Under the pieces are notes generated by a model. The model was not told where the DNA came from, ran no database searches, and saw only the letters and a list, made by a program, of their open reading frames with translations. From the NCBI GenBank assembly GCA_937888365.1, contig CALBFA010000041.1:1689-65688 (forward strand): a stretch of DNA of 64,000 bases, in the 5' to 3' direction. Each line of letters begins with the position of its first letter. Position 1 is the stretch's first letter. The stretch is from an uncultured Fidelibacterota bacterium (GTDB taxonomy: Bacteria; Fidelibacterota; UBA8477; JABMPR01). The position numbers were made by a program, and so were the translations under genes. Shown here piece after piece: positions 2,822 through 61,473 of the stretch.

Positions 2822-2843
2822 AGTGAACACCGAAAGGAAAGAA

Positions 2844-4052
2844 ATGTTTAAGAAAATTTTAGTTGGAAGCTTAATGCTTATTTTCATAATGGGCGTTTAT
2901 AATTGTGGTCAAAAAGAAGAAATTTCAGAAGCTCGTTTTCTTGTTTTATCGGATACGGTGATGCAAAAAATGGACTTCAAAGTCTGGGAACCTCTCGCAT
3001 TTGAGCTATCTAAAAATTACCCTGAAAAAGATATGACGGTCATGGTTATGCTCCAAGGTGTCGAGCAATCTATTGCCGAAGGCGATGACGAAACCGTGGA
3101 AAAGTGGACGAATCTAGTCCTGAATTATCCTGAAACGGAGATACTCAGCTTAGAAGATAGAGCTGCATTTGCAAATCGTATTGCATGGCGACTCAACGAA
3201 GCAGCTCGCTTGCCAGAACTCGGGATAAAAATGGCGAAACAAGCTGTTGATGTCTTTTTAAAAGTGGATGCGACAATTGAACACTATGGTGAAATGGGCG
3301 CAATGATTTATGATACCTACGGCGTTTTCCTTCTCGAAATGAAAGATTCTACAGCATCACTTGATGCCTTTGGCAAATCGATGGATTATTACGAATTCCC
3401 TGAGACCGTAACGCGTTTAGCTGCTTTATTTGACGAAATGGGCAATAAAGACAAAGCCTTAGAAAATTATACACGCGCTTGGGCATTAAATCCAAGCAAT
3501 ATCGAACTTTCTTTCCGAATCAAAGAGCTTTATGGCGAACTTAATCCAAGTGAAAATGCTGAAACCTATATCTCGGATTTGCATGAAAGTTTCTTGGAAG
3601 GTAAAAAAGAAGAAATTATAACAGGACAAACTTCAATGCCATCACCCGATTTCAAACTCGTGGATTTTAATGGAAAAACGTACTCGAAAGCTGAACTAGC
3701 AGGCAAAGTCATTTTTGTTGATTTCTGGGCAACATGGTGTGGACCCTGTCGTCGCGAATTGCCGGAGTATCAAAAGCTTTTTGATCTGCATAAAGATTCA
3801 GGGAAAGTCATATTCTTAGCCGTATCAACGGATCAAGATAGATTAAAAGTAGCACCTTTTATTGCCGAACAAAAATTCACGTTTCCTGTTGCCCATAATC
3901 CTAATCTGGCTGGTGAATTTGGTGTAGAAGGAATCCCATCATTATTTATTCTCGACACGCAAGGCAATATTGCCTACTCCATTGTTGGATATGATCCAAA
4001 CTCCGATTTTGTCCAAGAAATGACATGGCGAATTGAAAGCCTTATTGATTAA
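2844..4052 (+). CDS. Lipoprotein with helical/TPR-like region and C-terminal TlpA-like thioredoxin domain (thiol:disulfide oxidoreductase)
   Basis: Signal peptide with lipobox (VYNC), C-terminal WCGPC redox motif (FVDFWATWCGPCRRELP); start moved to the first non-overlapping Met (2844) with an upstream AGGAAAG. Confidence 0.6.
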   Translation: MFKKILVGSLMLIFIMGVYNCGQKEEISEARFLVLSDTVMQKMDFKVWEPLAFELSKNYPEKDMTVMVMLQGVEQSIAEGDDETVEKWTNLVLNYPETEILSLEDRAAFANRIAWRLNEAARLPELGIKMAKQAVDVFLKVDATIEHYGEMGAMIYDTYGVFLLEMKDSTASLDAFGKSMDYYEFPETVTRLAALFDEMGNKDKALENYTRAWALNPSNIELSFRIKELYGELNPSENAETYISDLHESFLEGKKEEIITGQTSMPSPDFKLVDFNGKTYSKAELAGKVIFVDFWATWCGPCRRELPEYQKLFDLHKDSGKVIFLAVSTDQDRLKVAPFIAEQKFTFPVAHNPNLAGEFGVEGIPSLFILDTQGNIAYSIVGYDPNSDFVQEMTWRIESLID

Positions 4053-4130
4053 TAATGTTAAAAGTTGAAAATCTAGAGTTCTGGATTGATTAAAGACCAA
4101 TTTTATTCCTCTCCATTTTTAAGAGGGGTA

Positions 4131-5620: not shown

Positions 5621-5977
5621 ATGTCGAAGAGCATTTTGAAAGATAAGAGTTACCAATTTGCAATTAGGATTGTAAAGCTTTCACAATACTTGACTAGTAT
5701 AAAAAAAGAGTTTGTTATAAGTAAACAAACATTGAGAAGCGGAACCGCAATTGGCGCTCTAATAAGAGAAGCAGAGTTTGCTCAAAGTAATTCTGACTAC
5801 ATCCATAAGTTTAGTATCGCACTAAAAGAAGCAAATGAAACTGGTTACTGGTTAGATTTATTAAAAGATACTGATTTTATTGATGTTACATTGTATGATG
5901 GTTTGTGCTGTGAATCCAAAGAGTTGGTTGCCATGCTTGTTTCAACAATTAAAACACTGAAAAACAAGAACTTATAG
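5621..5977 (+). CDS. Four-helix-bundle protein (TIGR02436-type, the family found inside 23S rRNA intervening sequences)
   Basis: 118 aa; matches family pattern ...SYQFAIRIVKL...LRSGTAIGALIREAEFAQS..DYIHKFSIALKEANETGYWLDLL. Confidence 0.7.
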   Translation: MSKSILKDKSYQFAIRIVKLSQYLTSIKKEFVISKQTLRSGTAIGALIREAEFAQSNSDYIHKFSIALKEANETGYWLDLLKDTDFIDVTLYDGLCCESKELVAMLVSTIKTLKNKNL

Positions 5978-6014
5978 TTTTTAGCTTTAAGTTTATAGTT
6001 TGAATAAGGATTAT

Positions 6015-7658
6015 ATGACTCAAATAGGCAGAAAACTCGACAAACTCCCTGCTAAACAAATTAGCAAGGCATCAGAATACATGAAAGATCTCATTGAGAA
6101 ATTTGATGACGAGCGCAAGTCCTTGCGAAGAGGTGGTGGTGAAAAAGCCATCAATCGCCAACATCAAAAAAATCGTTTAACGGCTAGAGAACGTGTCCAT
6201 AAACTCATTGATGCCAATTCTGAGTTTTTTGAATTAGGTCTTTTTGCCGCATGGGGAATGTATAAAGAATACGGCACACCTCCAGGTGCTGGAGTGGTTG
6301 CGGGCATTGGTAAAATCCAAGGACGAGACGTTGCGATAATCGCCAACGACGCCACCGTGAAAGCCGGTGCATCTTTCGAAGTGAGCTTAAAAAAGACATT
6401 GCGCGTTCAACAAATTGCTTTGGAAAATCATATCCCCGTTGTCTATATGGTGGACTCTGCGGGCGTGTTTTTGCCATTGCAAGACCAAGTCTTTCCCGAC
6501 GAAAATCATTACGGCAGAATATTTTATAATAATGCACGACTCTCGGCTCTTGGCGTTCCGCAAATTGCATCCGTCATGGGACCTTGTGTCGCGGGGGGAG
6601 CCTATTTGCCCGTCATGTGCGATAAATTCATTATGGTGGAAGGTGCATCCATGTTTCTTGCAGGACCTGCTTTGGTTAAAGCCGCCATTGGCCAGGAAAC
6701 AGACATCGAAACCCTGGGAGGAGCTGTGACGCATAACGCGATTTCGGGGACGGCTGATTATCATGAGCCCAATGATATGGCCGCCATCGAACGCATCAAA
6801 AAATTAATTGGAAATTTGCCGCCTGCACAAAAAGCACCGTTCAATAAGGTGGAAATGAAAAAGGCGTTGTTTCCCGAATCGGACTTAAATGCTATTATTC
6901 CCAATGATGGCTCTCCGTTTGACATGAAGGAAATTATCGCACGTTTTGTGGATAGAAGCGAGTTTGACGAATATAAAGCGACGTACGGCAAAACTATAAT
7001 TTGTGGTCATGCTCGCGTCGGTGGTTTCAAAGTAGGGATTGTATCGAATCAAAAATTAATCGAGAAAACAGAGACAGGTGAAATGCAAATGGGTGGTGTT
7101 ATCTATAATGAATCTGCCGACAAAGCCGCTCGATTTATTATGAATTGCAATCAAGACGGTATTCCCCTTATTTTTATCCATGATGTCAACGGATTTATGG
7201 TTGGGAAAGAAGCCGAATGGGCAGGTATCGCAAAAGACGGTGCCAAGATGGTCCAAGCCGTGGCGAATTCGGTGGTTCCAAAAATCACGCTCGTTGTGGG
7301 TGGGAGTTACGGAGCAGGGAATTACGCATTGAGTGGTCGGGCGTATTCGCCACGTTTTATGTTCGCATGGCCTTCTGCTAAAATAGCCGTCATGGGTGGC
7401 GCTCAAGCTGCCAACACATTAGCAGAAATACGCATGGCAAAAGAAAAGAACCCAACGCCTGAAAAACGCAAAGCAATCGTGGATGAGATAAAAGCTATTT
7501 ACGATTTACAAAGCGATCCACGATATGCAGCGGCTCGAATTTGGATTGACGAAATAATCAATCCAGAAGACACGCGACAAACGTTGATTCGTGCCCTCGA
7601 AGTATGTGAAAATCAACCTAAAATGCCTGCACCAAATTTTGGTGTGTTACAGGTTTAA
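6015..7658 (+). CDS. Acyl-CoA carboxylase carboxyltransferase (beta) subunit, MccB/PccB/AtuC-like
   Basis: 547-aa carboxyltransferase fold (two crotonase-like halves, GGG/ANDATV/MGG motifs); start chosen at Met 6015 after AAGGA. Confidence 0.85.
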   Translation: MTQIGRKLDKLPAKQISKASEYMKDLIEKFDDERKSLRRGGGEKAINRQHQKNRLTARERVHKLIDANSEFFELGLFAAWGMYKEYGTPPGAGVVAGIGKIQGRDVAIIANDATVKAGASFEVSLKKTLRVQQIALENHIPVVYMVDSAGVFLPLQDQVFPDENHYGRIFYNNARLSALGVPQIASVMGPCVAGGAYLPVMCDKFIMVEGASMFLAGPALVKAAIGQETDIETLGGAVTHNAISGTADYHEPNDMAAIERIKKLIGNLPPAQKAPFNKVEMKKALFPESDLNAIIPNDGSPFDMKEIIARFVDRSEFDEYKATYGKTIICGHARVGGFKVGIVSNQKLIEKTETGEMQMGGVIYNESADKAARFIMNCNQDGIPLIFIHDVNGFMVGKEAEWAGIAKDGAKMVQAVANSVVPKITLVVGGSYGAGNYALSGRAYSPRFMFAWPSAKIAVMGGAQAANTLAEIRMAKEKNPTPEKRKAIVDEIKAIYDLQSDPRYAAARIWIDEIINPEDTRQTLIRALEVCENQPKMPAPNFGVLQV

Positions 7659-7660
7659 GG
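7609..7660 (+). repeat. Direct repeat copy A: true 3' end of the carboxyltransferase gene, left boundary of the islet
   Basis: 52 bp, 49/52 identical to 9080-9131. Confidence 0.8.
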
Positions 7661-7675
7661 TAATATTAAAAAAAC

Positions 7676-9076
7676 ATGCTGTTGACTCCTCAAGATATTA
7701 AAAACATTGTTCGATTTGGTGAAGGTCAAAATGTTGAGTTTAAATTGCATATTCCGTCAAAAGTGCGGGATTTAGCGATCGAGATATGTGCTTTTGCTAA
7801 TGCTTCAGGTGGTACTATTCTTTTAGGAATTGATGATAAAAATGCCATAAAAGGCATTGAGATTGACAATAATAAACGTTCAGCTATTCAAGATGTGATG
7901 AACTTACTAAATCCGCAATTATCTTGTCCTTTTTATTTTGTTGACGTAGATGGTTGTATCGTTGGTGTTGTTGACGTCCCTTCTGGACTACAGAAACCAT
8001 ACGCCGTATCTGGAGCAATCTATATGCGACAAGGAGCAAACACACAAAAAATAACCCTCGTCGAACAGATGAGAGATTTATTTCAACAGTCAGGACGCGT
8101 TTATTTTGATAGTGGTAGTTGTAACTCTTTTTTCATAGATACTGATTTTGATGATGATTATTTTAAAGAATTTAGAAAAGTTGCTGGATTTACACCTGAA
8201 ATAGAAAAAATACAAATTATTAAAAATTTAAAGCTAGTTGATATAAAAAACGTTGTTAAAAATGCGTGTGTGCTGTTTTTTGGTAAAAAACCTGAGCAAT
8301 TTTTTGACAAAGCCGTAATCCGTTGTATTGCCTTTGAAGGATTTGATAAAGTTCAAATAATTGACGACAAAATTTGGGGTGGTCCACTTATAATTCAATA
8401 CCGTGACACATTGAAGTGGCTAAAAACAAAATTAAATGTACGTTATCTCATAGAAGGAAGTGGCCCACGCAAAGAACAATGGGAAATACCTGATGTAGCT
8501 ATTAAAGAGTCATTAATAAATGCGCTTTCCCACCGTGACTATTACGATGAAGGTGGCCGAATTATGGTCGAACTATTTAATGACCGACTAGAAATAACGA
8601 ATCCTGGCGGATTAGTGAATGCAATCTCCATTCATGAATTTGGGAAGAAAAGTTCAAGTAGAAACCCTTTGATATTTGATCTGTTTCAACGAATTAACAT
8701 GGTTGAGCAAGTTGGATCTGGTATTAATCGCATAAAAAAAGCTATAGCCGAAGCAGATTTACCTAAGCCTATTTTTAAAACTAAGGGATTGTTTACCGTA
8801 GTTTTTACACGCGCCTCTTTGTCTGAACAAGATAAAACTACAGTGAAAACTACAGTGAAAACTACAGTGAAAACTACAGTGAAAATTCTTGAGTTAATAC
8901 AAAATGATAAAAAAATGACTCGCCAAATGCTAGCTAAAATCTTGGGGATGACAGTTGGTGGCGTTGACTGGAATCTTAAAAAATTAAAACAAGCTGGACA
9001 GCTTAAACGCATCGGCCCTGATAAAGGTGGTTACTGGGAAATAATAGAAGATGAATCAGAAAACAATAACAACTAA
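7676..9076 (+). CDS. AlbA_2 (divergent-AAA / Schlafen-like) + HATPase_c_4 + C-terminal winged-helix protein; putative defense-associated regulator/sensor
   Basis: N-terminal ...NVEFKLHIPSKVRDLAIEICAFANASGGTILLGIDDK... (AlbA_2 pattern); middle ...ESLINALSHRDYYDEGGRIMVELFNDRLEITNPGGL (HATPase_c_4 pattern); C-terminal wHTH; lies inside the repeat-bounded insertion. Confidence 0.65.
   Translation: MLLTPQDIKNIVRFGEGQNVEFKLHIPSKVRDLAIEICAFANASGGTILLGIDDKNAIKGIEIDNNKRSAIQDVMNLLNPQLSCPFYFVDVDGCIVGVVDVPSGLQKPYAVSGAIYMRQGANTQKITLVEQMRDLFQQSGRVYFDSGSCNSFFIDTDFDDDYFKEFRKVAGFTPEIEKIQIIKNLKLVDIKNVVKNACVLFFGKKPEQFFDKAVIRCIAFEGFDKVQIIDDKIWGGPLIIQYRDTLKWLKTKLNVRYLIEGSGPRKEQWEIPDVAIKESLINALSHRDYYDEGGRIMVELFNDRLEITNPGGLVNAISIHEFGKKSSSRNPLIFDLFQRINMVEQVGSGINRIKKAIAEADLPKPIFKTKGLFTVVFTRASLSEQDKTTVKTTVKTTVKTTVKILELIQNDKKMTRQMLAKILGMTVGGVDWNLKKLKQAGQLKRIGPDKGGYWEIIEDESENNNN
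8837..8884 (+). repeat. Perfect in-frame tandem repeat (ACTACAGTGAAA)x4 encoding (TTVK)4 in the linker of the AlbA_2 protein
   Basis: Four identical 12-bp units read directly from sequence. Confidence 0.9.
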
Positions 9077-9079
9077 TGG

Positions 9080-9131
9080 AAAATAAACCTAAAATGCCTG
9101 CACCAAATTTTGGCGTGTTGCAGGTTTAAGG
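9080..9131 (+). repeat. Direct repeat copy B: pseudo 3' end of the carboxyltransferase gene, right boundary of the AlbA_2 cassette
   Basis: 3 mismatches vs copy A, two of them synonymous in the carboxyltransferase reading frame. Confidence 0.8.
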
Positions 9132-9333: not shown

Positions 9334-10236
9334 ATGAGATATCGAAAACCTCCTCTATCAATAGCTGAACAGGTCAATACTTTGAAAAGTAGAGGTCTTA
9401 TTATTTCAGATGAGAAAAGGGCAAAACATTATCTGTCCTATATCAGTTTGTATCGTTTTAGAGCATATAAATTCGCGTATCAAGATAATAGCAATCCTAA
9501 GCATCCATTTTACCCAGAGAGTACTTTCGAGAAGGTATTAAACACCTATTTATTTGATAGAAAGCTACGCGTCCTTGTTTTTGATGCTCTTGAGAGAATT
9601 GAAATTGCATTCAGAGCACAAATTATTCATATCTATTCCATAAAACATGGAGCTAACTGGTTTGAGAATGCGTTATTATTCCGTAAACAGCATTTATTTG
9701 AACGTGATACAACATTGATTGACAAAGAACTTAGGCGGTCTAACGAAGTCTTTATTAAGCATTATAAAAAAACCTATACAGACCCTGTACAACCCCCAGC
9801 ATGGATGACTCTAGAGGTAACAGGTTTGGGGTTGTTGTCCAAAATTTTTGAAAATTTAAAAATTAGTAATGAGAAAAAAACTATTGCAAGAAACTTTAAT
9901 TTAGGACACCCATTTATACTTGAAAATTGGATGCATTCTTTAACAGTGATTCGAAATATCTGTGCTCACCATGGGCGACTTTGGAATAGGGAAAGTACCG
10001 CTAGAATGACATTCCCAAATAATACCCGAGATGTTTGGCTTAGCAATAGCGATATTCATAAAGGGAAAATGTTCCTCGTTTTAAGCAGTATTCTTCACCT
10101 GTTAAATACAATTATTCTAGGTAATCATTTTAAAGAAAAACTCATAGCACTTATAAAAGAACACCCCGATATTTCTTTGAGACAAATGGGGTTTCCAAAT
10201 GGTTGGGAAAATGAAAATCTTTGGCTCAACAAATAA
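9334..10236 (+). CDS. Abi_2 family abortive-infection protein (AbiD/AbiF-like)
   Basis: 300 aa; N-terminal ...LSIAEQVNTLKSRGLIISDEKRAKHYLSYISLYRFRAYKF... is the hallmark start of Abi_2 proteins; AT-rich gene. Confidence 0.7.
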   Translation: MRYRKPPLSIAEQVNTLKSRGLIISDEKRAKHYLSYISLYRFRAYKFAYQDNSNPKHPFYPESTFEKVLNTYLFDRKLRVLVFDALERIEIAFRAQIIHIYSIKHGANWFENALLFRKQHLFERDTTLIDKELRRSNEVFIKHYKKTYTDPVQPPAWMTLEVTGLGLLSKIFENLKISNEKKTIARNFNLGHPFILENWMHSLTVIRNICAHHGRLWNRESTARMTFPNNTRDVWLSNSDIHKGKMFLVLSSILHLLNTIILGNHFKEKLIALIKEHPDISLRQMGFPNGWENENLWLNK

Positions 10237-10334: not shown

Positions 10335-11699
10335 ATGTCAAATCGAATTGTACGAATTGCAAATGGTCAAGGATTCTGGGGCGATAGTATTGAAGCGCCT
10401 GTCCAACTTGTAGAAGGTGGAGGCATTGATTATCTGACGCTGGATTATCTAGCAGAAGTCACAATGTCTATCATGCAGCGTCAAAAAGAGAAAAATCCCG
10501 AGGCGGGGTATGCGCGGGACTTTGTGGAACTTATCGATAGGATTTTACCTCAGTTGATGGAAAAAAATATTAAAGTCATCGCGAATGCTGGCGGCGTCAA
10601 TTCACCCGCCGCAGCAAAGGCTTTGCTGAAAGTCGCTGAAAAGCATAATATCAGTGGCTTGAAAATTGGTATTATTGTAGGCGACGATATCCTGTATTCA
10701 ATTGATGACTTACAGGCAAAAGGAGCAACCTTCGCGAATATGGAGAATGGTGAGAACTTTAGCGACATCAAAGATAAAGTCAAATCGGCCAACGTTTATA
10801 TCGGTGCAGAGCCCATTGCAAAAGCTTTGGATATGGGCGCGCATATTGTCCTGGCGGGTCGCGTTACTGATCCAGCGCTCGCGTTGGGGCCGATGATTCA
10901 TGAATTTGGATGGAAAATGGACGATTTTCATCGCTTGGCCATGGGAACCCTTGCGGGACACATCACCGAATGTGGCGCTCAATGTACAGGCGGAAATTAC
11001 TCTCGCTGGTGGGACATTAAAGATTATGCTGGAATCGGTTATCCTGTCATTGAAATCGAGGAAAGCGGCGAGTTCGTCATCACAAAACAAAAAGGTACAG
11101 GCGGTATTGTTAATTTGATGTCTATTTCGGAGCAATTGCTTTACGAAATGGGCGATCCCAATAATTATATTTCTCCTGATGTAGTCGTCGATTTTACGGG
11201 TGTTAAAATTAAGGAAGACGGCGAGAATCGCGTGAAAGCAATGGATGTTAATGGCATCGAACCCACCGAATTTTACAAGGTATCGCTAAGTTATTTTGCG
11301 GGCTATAAAGCTTCGGGACAATTAACAGTTTCGGGACCGCGCGCCCTTGATAAAGCGAAATTAGTCGCCGAAATTATCTGGGAACGCCTTAAACGAGCAG
11401 GGTATTCTTTCGAAGAAACATCCACCGAGTTCTTAGGAGTATCGCCTTGCGACATGGAGCATCCACCCAAAGAGTTTGAAGTGAATGGCATTGTCTTGCG
11501 CTTAGGCGTACGTGACGAAGATCGTGACAAAGTCGTCCGGTTTAGCAAAGAAATCGCTCCCGTCATCACGAGCGGTCCGCCAGGAATAACGGGTTTTGCA
11601 GGCGGACGTCCGAAACCTCAAGAAATTATCGCATATTGGCCAGCGTTGATTCCCAAAACTTTGATTAAAACATCTGTCCATATTGTGGAGGAAAAATGA
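10335..11699 (+). CDS. AtuA-family protein (DUF1446, acyclic terpene utilization AtuA-like)
   Basis: 454 aa, N-terminal ...RIANGQGFWGDS...DYLTLDYLAEVTMSI... family pattern; AAGGAG upstream. Confidence 0.7.
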   Translation: MSNRIVRIANGQGFWGDSIEAPVQLVEGGGIDYLTLDYLAEVTMSIMQRQKEKNPEAGYARDFVELIDRILPQLMEKNIKVIANAGGVNSPAAAKALLKVAEKHNISGLKIGIIVGDDILYSIDDLQAKGATFANMENGENFSDIKDKVKSANVYIGAEPIAKALDMGAHIVLAGRVTDPALALGPMIHEFGWKMDDFHRLAMGTLAGHITECGAQCTGGNYSRWWDIKDYAGIGYPVIEIEESGEFVITKQKGTGGIVNLMSISEQLLYEMGDPNNYISPDVVVDFTGVKIKEDGENRVKAMDVNGIEPTEFYKVSLSYFAGYKASGQLTVSGPRALDKAKLVAEIIWERLKRAGYSFEETSTEFLGVSPCDMEHPPKEFEVNGIVLRLGVRDEDRDKVVRFSKEIAPVITSGPPGITGFAGGRPKPQEIIAYWPALIPKTLIKTSVHIVEEK

Positions 11700-19685: not shown

Positions 19686-20879
19686 ATGGCTAAGAAAAAG
19701 TATGAGCGCACGAAGCCTCACGTTAATGTAGGAACAATAGGTCATGTTGACCATGGGAAGACGACATTAACGGCAGCAATCACGGTAGTATTATCGAATG
19801 ACGGATTGAGTGAAGTCCGTTCATTTGACAGTATTGATAATGCACCAGAAGAGCGTGAACGAGGAATCACAATTGCGACAGCCCACGTAGAGTATGAGAC
19901 GGAAAATCGTCATTATGCCCACGTTGACTGTCCAGGACACGCGGACTATATCAAAAATATGATAACAGGAGCCGCCCAAATGGACGGCGCGATCCTGGTT
20001 GTAAGTGCCGCAGACGGCGCGATGCCTCAGACCCGTGAGCACGTATTACTTGCCAAGCAGGTAAACGTCCCCTCAATCGTAATATTCATGAATAAAGTAG
20101 ACCAAGTAGATGATGATGAGTTATTGGACTTGGTAGAGATGGAATTACGTGAATTATTAGATGAATATGATTTTCCAGGTGATGATACACCTGTCATACG
20201 AGGAAGTGCATTACGAGCTTTAGGCAATCCTACAGATCCTGAAGCAACAGCGTGTATCCATGAGTTGATGGCAGCGGTAGATTCATTTATCCCCGAACCC
20301 GAACGAGATGTAGACAAGCCCTTTTTAATGCCTGTAGAAGATGTATTTAGTATCACAGGTCGTGGTACGGTAGGAACGGGGAGAATTGAACGAGGGATCG
20401 TAAAAGTAGGCGAAGAAGTTGAAATCATAGGTATGGTTGAAGAGTCGAAGAAAACGACAGTAACGGGAGTAGAGATGTTCCGTAAGTTGTTAGACTCAGG
20501 CCAAGCAGGTGATAATGTAGGTTTATTATTACGAGGAATCGATAAAGAGTGGCTCCAGCGTGGAATGGTCATCGCCAAACCTGGTAGTGTAAAACCACAC
20601 AAGAAATTTAAGGCAGAAGTCTATGTGTTGAAGAAAGAAGAAGGGGGTCGTCATACACCATTTTTTAATGGATATCGTCCCCAGTTTTATTTTCGCACGA
20701 CGGATGTAACAGGTATCGTAGATTTACCTGAAGGAACAGAAATGGTAATGCCAGGTGACAATGTGACTGTAACAATCTCATTGATAGCGCCCATCGCAAT
20801 GGATCCAGAATTGCGTTTTGCTATCCGTGAAGGTGGTCATACTGTTGGCGCTGGTGTCGTAACTGAGATAATCGAATAG
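19686..20879 (+). CDS. tuf: Elongation factor Tu (copy 1)
   Basis: 397 aa, [11 protein letters not shown]-loop; identical to copy at 35149-36342. Confidence 0.95.
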
Positions 20880-35148: not shown

Positions 35149-36342
35149 ATGGCTAAGAAAAAGTATGAGCGCACGAAGCCTCACGTTAATGTAGGAACAA
35201 TAGGTCATGTTGACCATGGGAAGACGACATTAACGGCAGCAATCACGGTAGTATTATCGAATGACGGATTGAGTGAAGTCCGTTCATTTGACAGTATTGA
35301 TAATGCACCAGAAGAGCGTGAACGAGGAATCACAATTGCGACAGCCCACGTAGAGTATGAGACGGAAAATCGTCATTATGCCCACGTTGACTGTCCAGGA
35401 CACGCGGACTATATCAAAAATATGATAACAGGAGCCGCCCAAATGGACGGCGCGATCCTGGTTGTAAGTGCCGCAGACGGCGCGATGCCTCAGACCCGTG
35501 AGCACGTATTACTTGCCAAGCAGGTAAACGTCCCCTCAATCGTAATATTCATGAATAAAGTAGACCAAGTAGATGATGATGAGTTATTGGACTTGGTAGA
35601 GATGGAATTACGTGAATTATTAGATGAATATGATTTTCCAGGTGATGATACACCTGTCATACGAGGAAGTGCATTACGAGCTTTAGGCAATCCTACAGAT
35701 CCTGAAGCAACAGCGTGTATCCATGAGTTGATGGCAGCGGTAGATTCATTTATCCCCGAACCCGAACGAGATGTAGACAAGCCCTTTTTAATGCCTGTAG
35801 AAGATGTATTTAGTATCACAGGTCGTGGTACGGTAGGAACGGGGAGAATTGAACGAGGGATCGTAAAAGTAGGCGAAGAAGTTGAAATCATAGGTATGGT
35901 TGAAGAGTCGAAGAAAACGACAGTAACGGGAGTAGAGATGTTCCGTAAGTTGTTAGACTCAGGCCAAGCAGGTGATAATGTAGGTTTATTATTACGAGGA
36001 ATCGATAAAGAGTGGCTCCAGCGTGGAATGGTCATCGCCAAACCTGGTAGTGTAAAACCACACAAGAAATTTAAGGCAGAAGTCTATGTGTTGAAGAAAG
36101 AAGAAGGGGGTCGTCATACACCATTTTTTAATGGATATCGTCCCCAGTTTTATTTTCGCACGACGGATGTAACAGGTATCGTAGATTTACCTGAAGGAAC
36201 AGAAATGGTAATGCCAGGTGACAATGTGACTGTAACAATCTCATTGATAGCGCCCATCGCAATGGATCCAGAATTGCGTTTTGCTATCCGTGAAGGTGGT
36301 CATACTGTTGGCGCTGGTGTCGTAACTGAGATAATCGAATAA
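35149..36342 (+). CDS. tuf: Elongation factor Tu (copy 2)
   Basis: Identical protein and identical antisense shadow ORFs to copy 1. Confidence 0.95.
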
Positions 36343-56854: not shown

Positions 56855-57112
56855 GGGATTATACCTTTCGTAATGGTGAATCAATTATTTCATGCATGCG
56901 AATGTAAAATGGAAGATAAAATGATGAAGTCAACTAAGAAATTGATGTGAATTATCCCTTAGATTATTTTAATAAATTATTAAAAAAGAGTTGTGTGAAT
57001 AGAACATTTCCATATTTTTCCCCCGTTCGTAAATACTTCGAACGATGTTTTTTCAAAGACAATTTCCCGTAGAATCGGGATGAACAATATGAGCAATTAA
57101 ATTGGAGGACTT

Positions 57113-58958: not shown

Positions 58959-59630
58959 ATGAAAAAAAATATTTATATCCTTGGGTTGATTGTATTAATT
59001 GTAGGTTGTGCATCATTTAGGACAGACATCGAGGGAGCGAGTGGGCTTGAGACCCAAAAAAACGTGGGTGCTGATCCAGTGGATGTCTTATTTATTGCCA
59101 AACACCTGGAACAGACACGAGGTTTGGATGCGATTCCGAAATTACAAAATCGATATGATATACTACAAGGTTTTGATGATATTCTTCTCGATGCGACCTC
59201 AGAGTTTTCAAACCTACGTCGCTTTGCTTCTTATACTGAATTCTCGTCTGATTTAAGCGACCCAAAACGGATTGCCTTAAAAGATTCGCTGATGTCACAG
59301 TATAAAATCCGTATATCCATGGAGTTTCGTAAGGAGAAATCCTTTAGTAAATATTTCTTAGGAACGCTAGGATCCGTCTTTTCATTAACGTTAGCACCGA
59401 TTCCTTATACGCAAGAATACTATTTAAAAGTTGATGTTTATGATGCAAATGGACGATATCAAAAATCATATGATAGAAGCGCAAAAACGACGAAATGGGT
59501 GGAAGCGTTTCTTTTACCCATTTATCCATTCCATACAGAGAAGCGAAAAACCGAAGAAATCTATGTCGCATTTTTGCATGACGTCTTTCGGCAAATTGAA
59601 TCGGATAGGATTTTGAACATGGGTGAATAA
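58959..59630 (+). CDS. Hypothetical lipoprotein
   Basis: Signal peptide with lipobox IVGC. Confidence 0.4.
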   Translation: MKKNIYILGLIVLIVGCASFRTDIEGASGLETQKNVGADPVDVLFIAKHLEQTRGLDAIPKLQNRYDILQGFDDILLDATSEFSNLRRFASYTEFSSDLSDPKRIALKDSLMSQYKIRISMEFRKEKSFSKYFLGTLGSVFSLTLAPIPYTQEYYLKVDVYDANGRYQKSYDRSAKTTKWVEAFLLPIYPFHTEKRKTEEIYVAFLHDVFRQIESDRILNMGE

Positions 59631-59633
59631 AAA

Positions 59634-59668
59634 AAGCCCCTGATTTCTCAAGGGCTTTGCGGGACCGA
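59634..59668. repeat. Direct repeat copy 1: duplicated 3' end of tRNA-Asp plus its terminator
   Basis: Identical to 59966-60004 except one T in the T-run. Confidence 0.8.
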
Positions 59669-59693
59669 TCCCGACGCGTGGGTCGGGACGACC
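59669..59693. repeat. Palindromic motif TCCCGACGCGTGGGTCGGGACG (copy 2 of 2) at inner edge of the GIY-YIG cassette
   Basis: Near-identical to 4131-4157. Confidence 0.5.
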
Positions 59694-59710
59694 TCCACCG
59701 TAAATTAAAA

Positions 59711-59959
59711 TCAATTGTCAAATTGTTGAATGAGATTTAAGAGAAGTTCTCGACGCCATTTTTTTAGCTGTTTTTCCCGAATCATCGCATCGCCTCTATT
59801 TCCAAATATTTCGGTATATACTAAAACCCAAGGTCCTTTATGCTTGGTATAAGGATTATCCCCTGCGTTGTGTCTTTCGATTCGCTTTTCTAAATCAGAT
59901 GTTTGTCCGATATAGAAACGGTCTTCAGAATTTTGTAGAATAGATAAAGTATATGTCAT
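59711..59959 (-). CDS. GIY-YIG nuclease-domain protein (small UPF0213-type)
   Basis: 82 aa after trimming to MTYTLSIL...; FYIGQTSDLEKRIERHN... is the GIY-YIG core. Confidence 0.7.
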   Translation of the reverse strand: MTYTLSILQNSEDRFYIGQTSDLEKRIERHNAGDNPYTKHKGPWVLVYTEIFGNRGDAMIREKQLKKWRRELLLNLIQQFDN

Positions 59960-59965
59960 CAAATT

Positions 59966-59994
59966 AAAAAGCCCCTGATTTCTCAAGGGCTTTT
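59966..59994 (-). terminator. Rho-independent terminator of tRNA-Asp
   Basis: On minus strand AGCCCTTGA-GAAA-TCAGGGGCT followed by TTTTT. Confidence 0.6.
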
Positions 59995-60004
59995 GCGGGA
60001 CCGA
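59966..60004. repeat. Direct repeat copy 2: overlaps the last 9 nt of tRNA-Asp and its terminator
   Basis: See copy 1. Confidence 0.8.
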
Positions 60005-60069
60005 CGAGGCTCGAACTCGCGACCTCCAACGTGACAGGCTGGCGTTCTAACCAACTGAACTACGGACCC
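59996..60069 (-). tRNA. tRNA-Asp (anticodon GTC)
   Basis: Manual fold of the reverse complement; anticodon loop CTGTCAC, discriminator G73; one T-T mismatch at acceptor pair 4-69. Confidence 0.7.
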
Positions 60070-60084
60070 AATATTTCAAATATA

Positions 60085-60396
60085 TTACTTGCGTTTTTTA
60101 TACATAATGGCTGCAGGAATGATGCCTAAATAGGCGATCAATAACATAATTGGAGAAATCGTTAATGATTGTGTACTATTAAGTTCTCCTGTGGCCATGA
60201 CCACATATCCTACAACGATGACAAATAACCCTGCGATAAAGATAAAGACATTTTGCTTTTCAAAGGAGAGGCCCGAAAGCCAGTGGTCTGAATGCTTATT
60301 TACTTCTCTCTCCATCGCGACGGCAATGATAATTGACTTACAAATAAATGCAAATAAAATATTTAATATTTTAAAAATAAGTACACGCGTTGACAT
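60085..60396 (-). CDS. Hypothetical small membrane protein
   Basis: 103-aa ORF with 2-3 hydrophobic helices; true start uncertain. Confidence 0.3.
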   Translation of the reverse strand: MSTRVLIFKILNILFAFICKSIIIAVAMEREVNKHSDHWLSGLSFEKQNVFIFIAGLFVIVVGYVVMATGELNSTQSLTISPIMLLIAYLGIIPAAIMYKKRK

Positions 60397-60441
60397 GATA
60401 CGTATAAGCTCTATATTCGCCCAAAATGAAACCGACTACTC

Positions 60442-61473
60442 ATGCATAATAAACAAAGATTAATAGTAAAATACCTGATATTAGTTGTATTAACGTCAAG
60501 TTTTCTAGCCTTGTCCCTTTCTACTTCTATCTTTGATAAAACCAACTATCCCCATAATAATCAAGAGGTTAAAATCACAATTCCTCAGGGTTCCTATTTA
60601 AGTCAAATTGCGGATTCGTTATACGGCAATAATTTAATTGAAAATAGAATCACTTTTATTTTAGCCGCATTGATTACCAATAAGAGTCGGAGTATGAAAT
60701 CGGGCCGGTATGTTTTGAACCAAGGCTTATCCAATGTAGGCATATTACGTGAAATGGAATCCACTAACATGGAGGATGTTATCGTAACGATTCCCGAAGG
60801 ATTACGATCCGATGAGATTATCTCAATGCTTTGTAGGAAAATTGACGTTGACTCGTTGGAACTTGTGCAATTGTTAGAAGATAGTGTTTTACTCAATCCT
60901 TTTGGTAAAAGTCTCCATCACTTAGAGGGCACTTTATTTCCGGATACCTATAATTTTATTAAAGGTACATCACCTCGCATCGTTTTCGAAAAATTGACGA
61001 ATCGCTTTTTAAGTCAATTACCAAAAGACTGGAAACAAAAATCTGAAGCCCTCGGACTTAATCTCAATCAAATATTGACACTCGCGTCTTTGGTGGAAAA
61101 AGAAACAGCAAAAAGTGATGAAAGACGACTGGTTGCAGGTGTTTACTTAAATCGAGTTCGAGCTGATATGCATTTGAATGCCGATCCGACCCTCATCTAT
61201 ATGTTGATAAAGCGTGATGAATGGGATGGTAATTTGCAAAAGCGCCATAAAAAGATTCGGGATCCATACAATACATATCGTTACAGAGGACTTCCTCCGG
61301 GTCCAATTGCCAGTCCTGGAAGAGCTTCCATTGAAGCTGTTCTTAATCCCGAAAACACACAATTTCTATATTTTGTTGGTAAAAATGATGGCTCAGGCGA
61401 GCATGATTTTTCCGAAACATTACGACAACATATTAATAAAGTAAATCGATATCAAAAAAGAAAGTCCCAATGA
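60442..61473 (+). CDS. mltG: Endolytic murein transglycosylase MltG (YceG-like)
   Basis: 343 aa, N-terminal TM, YceG-domain pattern (...GVYLNRVRADMHLNADPTLIY...). Confidence 0.8.
   Translation: MHNKQRLIVKYLILVVLTSSFLALSLSTSIFDKTNYPHNNQEVKITIPQGSYLSQIADSLYGNNLIENRITFILAALITNKSRSMKSGRYVLNQGLSNVGILREMESTNMEDVIVTIPEGLRSDEIISMLCRKIDVDSLELVQLLEDSVLLNPFGKSLHHLEGTLFPDTYNFIKGTSPRIVFEKLTNRFLSQLPKDWKQKSEALGLNLNQILTLASLVEKETAKSDERRLVAGVYLNRVRADMHLNADPTLIYMLIKRDEWDGNLQKRHKKIRDPYNTYRYRGLPPGPIASPGRASIEAVLNPENTQFLYFVGKNDGSGEHDFSETLRQHINKVNRYQKRKSQ

Follow-up and report, generated by a model that had tools for sequence, protein, structure and literature searches.

A GIY-YIG nuclease cassette with a hairpin-bearing pseudo-tRNA behind a Fidelibacterota tRNA-Asp gene, and its likeness to the Ssn nuclease/hairpin module

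Just past the tRNA-Asp gene in a 64,000-nucleotide (nt) stretch of DNA from an uncultured Fidelibacterota bacterium (contig CALBFA010000041.1, positions 1,689 to 65,688 of the forward strand; here, the window), we find a 335-bp cassette composed of a GIY-YIG nuclease gene of 82 residues and a broken copy of the tRNA end. We lean toward reading this feature as a tRNA-embedded variant of the Ssn nuclease/hairpin (SRM) module, selfish or semi-domesticated, that has been spread and amplified by recombination at its repeats. Our verdict on the window element is that it is an old, possibly inactive member of this widespread variant, which, as far as the searchable literature shows, is apparently undescribed. 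In tRNA sense, the cassette runs from the intact tRNA-Asp through a proximal terminator (T1), the ssn-like GIY-YIG gene, and the 3' part of a pseudo-tRNA-Asp with a hairpin to a distal terminator (T2). Its parts, in that order, are as follows.

59995..60069, minus strand: intact tRNA-Asp(GTC), after which the cassette comes on the same strand (ARAGORN; Rfam RF00005)
59966..59993, minus strand: proximal terminator hairpin T1, RNA sense AAAAGCCCTTGAGAAATCAGGGGCTTTTT, an exact copy of 59631-59658
59711..59959, minus strand: single-domain GIY-YIG gene, Ssn-like, 82 aa (list of open reading frames [ORFs]; Pfam PF01541)
59689..59701, minus strand: pseudo-tRNA block a, 3' strand of the anticodon stem plus variable loop, ACGGTGGAGGTCG (repeat search, pairwise alignment)
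59669..59688, no strand assigned: SRM-like hairpin TCCCGAC-CCACGC-GTCGGGA (RNA/tRNA sense), in place of the 15-nt T-arm (palindrome)
59659..59668, minus strand: pseudo-tRNA block b, 3' strand of the acceptor stem plus discriminator, TCGGTCCCGC (part of the 38/39-nt repeat)
59631..59658, minus strand: distal terminator T2, same sequence as T1, then 7 T (repeat)

An earlier, sequence-only reading of the window had proposed a discrete mini-cassette at the 3' end of a tRNA gene with a duplication of the tRNA end, and that outline holds. The tRNA is tRNA-Asp, as it had suggested (ARAGORN call tRNA-Asp(gtc), 59995-60069, minus strand; Rfam RF00005, 62.7 bits at 59996-60069 with the whole model matched), and the 297 bp between the repeat copies do contain an 82-aa GIY-YIG gene (Pfam PF01541, E = 7.6e-17, residues 7-71; other domains not found). 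This is the sole homology-supported ORF in those 297 bp. The repeat was rightly described as two copies carrying the tRNA end and a terminator, but copy 1 starts at 59631 and extends past the palindrome as a pseudo-tRNA; the palindrome lies at the inner edge, as described, but is 20 nt long (59669-59688), not 24. The two copies (59631-59668 and 59966-60004) are 38 and 39 nt long, an extra T at 59994 accounting for the length difference, and the second spans the last 9-10 nt of tRNA-Asp plus a terminator with an 11-12-bp stem and a GAAA loop. The 26-nt core of the repeat occurs exactly twice in the window and in none of 100 shuffles.

Beyond the palindrome, block a (CGACCTCCACCGT, 59689-59701) matches tRNA-Asp at 60020-60032 in 12 of 13 nt, with one mismatch. 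Because the duplication continues past the palindrome in this way, the distal copy is the 3' part of a pseudo-tRNA-Asp from the anticodon stem onward, and it reads, in tRNA sense, ACGGTGGAGGTCG / TCCCGACCCACGCGTCGGGA / TCGGTCCCGC / terminator. The hairpin in its middle is perfect, with 7-bp arms and a 6-nt loop, begins 23 nt past the nuclease stop codon, and is unique in the window and absent from the shuffles. This exact swap of a T-arm for another perfect hairpin is unlike pseudogene decay. The pseudo-tRNA and the hairpin match no Rfam family: a search of the window region at E <= 1 and of 20 related loci with gathering cut-offs returned only tRNAs and one unrelated LOOT RNA. Elsewhere in the window, TCCCG...CGGGA occurs with 5-bp stems only at 57065-57080 and 10496-10519 (TCCCGTAGAATCGGGA, TCCCGAGGCGGGGTATGCGCGGGA), probably by chance.

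The two terminators share one sequence and differ in what follows it. T1 folds into a 12-bp stem with a GAAA loop and a short U-tract (5 U, then AAUUUG), and it is not flagged by a terminator scan; T2 is flagged and is the sole terminator-like site called within 59400-60500. T2 also serves a convergent gene for a 223-aa lipoprotein (end 59630).

The Ssn family, to which we compare the cassette, was defined as single-domain GIY-YIG proteins (CDD cd10448) by Chenal et al. 2025 (PMC11893778). According to that paper, ssn genes are flanked by hairpin repeats, called NTS in Neisseria (CGTCATTCCCGCGMAVGCGGGAATCYRG) and generalised as SRM. Four purified members bound the hairpin as single-stranded DNA (ssDNA) only and in one orientation, cut a few nt 5' of it, and did not act on double-stranded DNA (dsDNA) or RNA; the SsnA mutations Y6A, Y17A, and E64A abolished cutting and kept binding; and SsnA restricts transformation in Neisseria (PMC11893778). 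The authors liken NTS-ssnA-NTS to an insertion sequence and to REP/RAYT (PMC11893778). The word tRNA is absent from the paper, and in the searchable literature we found no paper connecting Ssn with tRNA.

Neither NCBIfam nor PADLOC assigned the window protein to a specific family, and the NCBIfam model of group I intron endonucleases (TIGR01453, 215 positions) gave no match to it. By profile, its closest solved folds are the UPF0213 structures 1zg2 and 1ywl (E = 2e-14 and 1e-12) and Slx1 (about 1e-5); the single protein matches 1zg2 at E = 1.4e-7. The protein is 43% identical over its full length (E = 8e-18) to a homologue at one of the related loci considered here, L070, where the gene has canonical NTS repeats on its flanks, in exact agreement with the published NTS and SRM patterns. 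The window and L070 proteins lie about equally far from 1zg2 and 1ywl (E about 1e-7 for 1zg2) and have in common a REKQLKKW motif that 1zg2 does not have. Because of the 43% identity to L070 and the greater distance to UPF0213/YhbQ-type proteins, we provisionally place the window gene, as Ssn-like, in a tRNA-linked subgroup, a sequence-based assignment that runs through the NTS-flanked L070. UPF0213/YhbQ-type proteins and Slx1 are not known to be linked to hairpins or tRNA.

The window protein keeps the Tyr of the YIG motif and the Arg, His, and Glu, with Y16 and E62 equivalent to Y17 and E64 of SsnA. At the position of SsnA Y6, the first catalytic Tyr, it has a Ser, whereas at least 90% of homologues have Tyr. 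The orthologues in L155-L157, described below, also have Tyr there; among them, only the window protein has Ser. A loss of cutting is possible because this Ser replaces a Tyr whose Ala mutant in SsnA binds but cannot cleave; by analogy, the window protein may bind its hairpin without cutting.

The likeness to Ssn extends beyond the fold. The window protein is a single-domain GIY-YIG protein in the range of about 80-95 aa, its flanking GC-rich hairpin has the core TCCCGN...NCGGGA, which is the dRS3/NTS core ATTCCCGCG...CGCGGGAAT, and the layout NTS-ssnA-NTS has its counterpart in pseudo-tRNA(hairpin) - tRNA - ssn - pseudo-tRNA(hairpin). The differences concern the surroundings: the window-type hairpin lies inside a partial tRNA copy, where it replaces the anticodon arm or T-arm, whereas NTS is a free intergenic repeat with GTCA / TCYRG flanks; the cassette gene is always co-oriented with the intact tRNA and within about 100 nt of it; and the window has one hairpin, not hundreds. 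Hairpin flanks at the tRNA-linked loci are tRNA-derived. The loci L070, L082, and L086 have no tRNA and form the outgroup in a rough neighbour-joining tree. Past the gene of L070, and with no tRNA nearby, there is also an array (2830-4100) of a repeat of about 116 nt in which two canonical NTS-type hairpins point in opposite directions (GTCATTCCCGCGAACGCGGGAATCCAG).

REP/BIME elements with their RAYT proteins offer a similar parallel, in the small nuclease gene, the short flanking hairpins recognised as ssDNA, the clusters and arrays, and the debate over selfish or domesticated status. The window enzyme differs in being GIY-YIG (the sole domain found) and not HUH/Y1 (IS200/IS605-like TnpA), and the repeats lie within tRNA-derived sequence. 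The GIY-YIG enzyme of the cassette is not known to carry out covalent transposase chemistry.

Homologues of the window protein are numerous and spread across many phyla: a profile search for the wider family returned 29,176 clusters (50% identity) at E <= 1e-3 and 7,520 at E <= 1e-10. For the genome scan, a first protein alignment was too divergent for pattern design, and a narrower alignment was used. The set of loci analysed comprises 80 homologous loci from species-representative genomes in about 10 phyla, with tRNAs called by ARAGORN. A tRNA lies within 120 nt of the nuclease gene or array on the same strand at 58 of the 80 loci and on the opposite strand at none, and 8 of the remaining loci end at a contig edge right beside the gene. 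The tRNA-linked loci span 21 isoacceptor types and carry partial copies of the local tRNA; the element thus belongs to a recurrent class.

These loci come in two forms. The downstream form (tRNA, terminator, gene, 3' part of a pseudo-tRNA) is found in Bacteroidota, Ignavibacteriota, Acidobacteriota, Chloroflexota, and Marinimicrobia, and its mirror image, the upstream form (5' part of a pseudo-tRNA, gene, tRNA), mostly in Patescibacteria and Gammaproteobacteria at tRNA-Lys and tRNA-Asn. Among evaluable loci, 43 of 45 in the downstream form and 18 of 19 in the upstream form have, beyond the gene, at least 10 nt identical to the neighbouring tRNA, and the partial copies resemble the local tRNA and not one common ancestral sequence. 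One or more segments of the tRNA copy are swapped for a hairpin: in some loci all or half of the anticodon arm, in others part of the T-loop, in still others both arms.

The hairpins have a conserved foot. Most downstream loci have the foot TCCCG...CGGGA, 15 of 20 upstream loci have (C)TCCGCCRGCYGGCGGA(G), and TCC(C)G hairpins with a stem of at least 6 bp are present at 31 of the 45 evaluable downstream-type loci and 16 of the 19 upstream-type loci. We counted 85 TCCCG...CGGGA hairpins in the 60 kb that lie no more than 200 nt from the genes, versus 41 in the remaining 357 kb; of these 41, many form part of arrays at the same tRNA. Of the near-gene hairpins, 48 are distinct; pairing continues past the 5-bp foot in 46 of them, and the stem reaches 7 bp or more in 31. 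The bases at stem positions 6 and 7 vary, and what is conserved is therefore the structure itself. The closely related nucleases of L027, L067, and L023 have the hairpin TCCCGACGGGTCGGGA at differing positions of a pseudo-tRNA-Asn, which indicates that its placement recurs and is not a single ancestral accident.

An insert with the 3' part of a tRNA repeated directly at each end (here 59631-59668 plus 59689-59701 versus 59966-60004 plus 60020-60032) is also the classic mark of tRNA-targeted integration. One possibility is that the feature is a remnant of an integrase-mediated island or prophage at the 3' end of tRNA-Asp, with the repeats as attL and attR and the rest deleted. Such islands likewise duplicate the displaced tRNA end and keep the tRNA intact, their hot spots are the anticodon arm and T-arm, and in two relatives (L155 and L156) the proximal terminator is unlike the distal one, as if the insert had carried its own tRNA end. 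The cassette, however, differs from islands in its size of 0.3-0.4 kb, its mirror-image 5' forms, and the conserved hairpin in the displaced copy, and the 297 bp between the repeats contain no integrase or other island gene. The unit of about 300-430 bp recurs at dozens of tRNAs, in mirror forms and in arrays, and independent decay of islands would not yield a recurring unit with the same gene and hairpin. We therefore hold a decayed island to be very improbable.

At several loci the cassette is reiterated in tandem. L042 has 7 units of 427 bp, each with the gene, a pseudo-tRNA with two hairpins, and a terminator, and L014 has 6 such units; both are chromosome-scale records of metagenome-assembled genomes. 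Downstream of tRNA-Asp in L007 and tRNA-Val in L015 there are 3 gene units, and upstream of the intact tRNA lie 4 tandem units without an ORF (L007 2185-2500 and L015 1108-1407; 79 or 75 nt each). These ORF-less units consist of tRNA positions 1-26, a TCCCG hairpin replacing the anticodon arm, the variable loop, and a spacer of about 25 nt, and they have the look of non-autonomous satellites of the cassette. The cultured isolate Ignavibacterium album JCM 16511, whose genome is finished, has 3 units after tRNA-Asn, each with the palindrome TCCGTTAGCTAACGGA in place of three T-loop nucleotides. Arrays in this finished genome mean that the pattern is no artefact of metagenome assembly.

The same evidence bears on the simplest account of the window locus, a single tandem duplication at this place or an error of assembly, with nothing more to it. 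The identical terminator copies and the lack of within-species variation would suit it. Against it, the same sequence is found in independent assemblies (22 contigs read per look-up, 7 contigs aligned directly), the architecture recurs in the finished cultured-isolate genome and in L042 and L014, and the hairpin motif is conserved across phyla. We give this account next to no credence.

To follow the history of the window copy in its species, an uncultured member of the Marinimicrobia known from aquatic metagenomes, we read 22 contigs per flanking-protein look-up, with one gene context displayed, and aligned 7 contigs directly. All sampled contigs have the cassette, with identical flanking proteins, and the 7 aligned ones are 100% identical over 950 bp including the cassette. 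More distant comparisons were anchored on MltG; the 223-aa lipoprotein was unsuitable, as its neighbours differ in every relative. L155, L156, and L157/158 keep the order PcrA-MltG-DUF3098-tRNA-Asp, with MltG only about 47-49% identical, and have the cassette at the same place. The nuclease ORF is intact in four lineages, and the hairpin stem is the same in L155-L157, with loops CGAAGC, CGCAAGC, and CAAGC versus CCACGC in the window. In L156 an acceptor-stem variant is identical in tRNA and pseudo-tRNA, which fits homogenisation.

One relative has an empty site as well. In L159-161, tRNA-Asp is followed by a single terminator and the nuclease gene is absent. L156 and L159 have in common the left flank (about 78% identical), the tRNA, and the 37-nt distal terminator, and this filled/empty pair is seen only between distant relatives. 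Since the terminator of L159-161 is homologous to the distal one of L156 and the proximal one of L156 is unlike it, the distal pseudo-tRNA and terminator look like the original host end; judged by sequence, the proximal tRNA end and terminator look as if they arrived with or after the insertion. At about 477-573 of the reverse complement, the 5' part of tRNA-Asp in the same Marinimicrobia relatives (L159-L161) is interrupted by an insertion of 97 nt that has no ORF, begins TCCGTC, and is bounded by a 12-nt repeat, GGGATCGTAGTT.

The window copy is thus fixed in the species, orthologous in distant relatives, and altered at a catalytic Tyr, and for these reasons we consider it probably an old resident rather than an active mover. 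Recent mobility in this species finds no support in these data.

That reading had also suggested that the nuclease might catalyse its own homing. Under classical free-standing GIY-YIG homing, the double-stranded empty site (tRNA-Asp with a single terminator) would be cut and the gene copied in by repair. There is precedent in phage T4, where SegB is a free-standing GIY-YIG homing endonuclease in a tRNA gene cluster (PMC2330249), so that a GIY-YIG gene lies among tRNA genes and is inherited together with flanking tRNA sequence via break repair; moreover, the duplicated target end around the nuclease gene resembles a co-conversion product, and filled and empty relatives exist. Seg and I-TevI proteins, however, have a separate DNA-binding domain, cut dsDNA, and lack a cognate hairpin or an arm-substituted pseudo-tRNA. 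The homing-endonuclease architecture is GIY-YIG plus a C-terminal DNA-binding domain in at least 200 aa, and the window protein has 82 aa and the catalytic domain only. Its nearest characterised relatives, the four tested Ssn members, cut only ssDNA beside their own hairpin, a feature that the empty site lacks. In a carrier, the intact tRNA would go on being a target; homing also leaves the conserved hairpin, and its swap into tRNA arms, without a role; and Ser stands at a catalytic Tyr. We regard homing on a double-stranded empty site as improbable.

How, then, might an ssDNA-directed nuclease maintain or spread such a cassette? In the mechanism we propose, the gene would be expressed by read-through from the tRNA/DUF3098 transcript past the weaker proximal terminator; we infer this because no promoter-like site was found between the tRNA and the nuclease gene and because T1, with 5 U against 7 in T2, escapes the terminator scan. 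By analogy with the characterised Ssn enzymes, the protein would bind the hairpin when the locus is single-stranded and nick a few nt 5' of it. The break would fall between direct repeats, the tRNA end and the pseudo-tRNA end, and would be repaired by recombination. Repair of a nick so placed could cause duplication, lengthen or shorten arrays, bring about gene conversion between the tRNA and its pseudo-tRNA, and carry the cassette into empty alleles. One tRNA is always left intact, and the cost of the cassette to the host would thus be low. Exposure of the tRNA-sense strand as the lagging-strand template was considered and dropped, as GC skew suggests that the plus strand is leading and tRNA-Asp head-on to replication. 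We also set aside a role of the pseudo-tRNA as a guide RNA or 3'-end processing signal; characterised Ssn enzymes bind no RNA, and the data require neither.

Several observations weigh against the reading that we favour. The proposed mechanism does not account for the swap of an arm for a hairpin; speculatively, this could come from template switching or short-patch conversion guided by the tRNA arms, which are hairpins in ssDNA, or by the conserved flanking D-stem and variable-loop sequences. The biochemistry of Ssn comes from members other than the tRNA-linked ones. The published SRM pattern, HGTCWYN(0-2)YYVSBRHN(0-5)WNVSBRGN(0-2)RNCYNB, has no match in the window, and among the 80 loci it matches only L070, L082, and L086, plus one stray site in L061. 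The 64-kb window holds one good hairpin, and in the minimum-free-energy fold of its pseudo-tRNA another pairing, close in energy, takes the place of the 7-bp hairpin. To these are added the Ser at the first catalytic position, the failure to find presence/absence polymorphism in the species (sampled contigs were all filled), and the orthology across deep relatives, which is as compatible with a domesticated function as with a selfish one.

The last point raises the question as to whether the nuclease-hairpin pair is kept at tRNA genes for the benefit of the cell. A domesticated function could lie in cutting incoming or displaced ssDNA to limit recombination or transformation, as proposed for SsnA in Neisseria, or in spoiling the sites of integrases in tRNA genes. 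The hairpins stand in for exactly the two tRNA arms that tyrosine integrases prefer; this preference for the anticodon arm and T-arm is reportedly a finding of Williams in 2002. Within the species the cassette is also fixed and without variation, it has orthologues at the tRNA-Asp of relatives with much-diverged MltG, its ORF is intact in four lineages, and SsnA does limit transformation (PMC11893778). On the other side stand a patchy distribution over 21 isoacceptors and many phyla, identical tandem arrays and ORF-less satellite units, the many loci that stop at contig breaks, and a relative without the cassette, all of which are hallmarks of selfish repeats; the window protein has, moreover, lost a catalytic Tyr. 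We regard domestication as unlikely, though it is the alternative that we take most seriously.

Returning to the tRNA-embedded Ssn module, a broader and more tentative proposal, to which we give somewhat less than even chances, is that the tRNA-linked Ssn-hairpin cassettes make up a class of mobile elements that has so far gone unrecognised. Such elements would colonise tRNA genes by means of an ssDNA-specific nuclease and a hairpin, duplicate part of the tRNA, swap an arm of the spare copy for the hairpin while one gene stays intact, and amplify into arrays and ORF-less satellites. If true, this would show how hairpin repeats of the dRS3/NTS type spread, a question left by the Ssn paper (PMC11893778), and would add a third mode of tRNA-gene targeting besides integrases and introns.

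Ssn nucleases were described only in 2025. The tRNA-linked form is widespread and sharply defined in anatomy, and it bears signs of turnover in its arrays, ORF-less units, and shifting hairpin positions. The class thus offers defined substrates and predictions on ssDNA-directed mobility and on settling at tRNA genes. It may also explain many annotated tRNA fragments and contig breaks beside tRNA genes, particularly in assemblies of Bacteroidota, Ignavibacteriota, and Patescibacteria. The interest lies less in the window copy, which alone would be the annotation of an old, possibly inactive element, than in the class that it reveals.

The terminator of the cassette led to a separate observation. 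Its 26-mer AAAGCCCCTGATTTCTCAAGGGCTTT occurs exactly in 58 unrelated JGI metagenome contigs (L087-L144), none of them from the window organism and none with a GIY-YIG homologue (0 of 58). In about 24 of these, a tmRNA or tRNA gene called by ARAGORN ends just beside the terminator, and many of those have another hairpin, of the type TCCGGCACCATCCGGA, between gene and terminator. In L135 (114-1421; also in L139), two hairpin-plus-terminator modules lie 1.28 kb apart by the 3' end of a tmRNA and bracket a toxin-antitoxin-like pair, a 122-aa Gp49/HigB-like ORF and a 109-aa XRE helix-turn-helix ORF, as read from the translations only.

Elsewhere in the window, the 3' end of a carboxyltransferase gene (6000-7658) is repeated over 57 nt at 93% (7604-7660 and 9076-9131), and the two copies bracket a gene for a 466-aa protein with Schlafen/AlbA_2, HATPase_c_4, and winged helix-turn-helix domains (7676-9076), after which comes a gene for an AbiD-like protein (9334-10236). 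The sequence-only reading had suggested for this islet the same insertion mechanism as for the tRNA-Asp cassette, a link that our data do not support: the islet has neither a GIY-YIG gene nor a TCCCG hairpin, and only the generic layout is common to both. It looks like a small defence islet at a gene 3' end. Just upstream of the carboxyltransferase gene, a 118-aa ORF (5621-5977) matches the 23S rRNA intervening-sequence protein family (PF05635, E = 7.5e-23). Finally, two 1193-nt segments of the window (19686-20878 and 35149-36341) are 100% identical, and the first lies between tRNA-Thr(ggt) and tRNA-Trp, which we take to be the normal position of tuf. The segments are probably two identical copies of tuf, kept alike by gene conversion.

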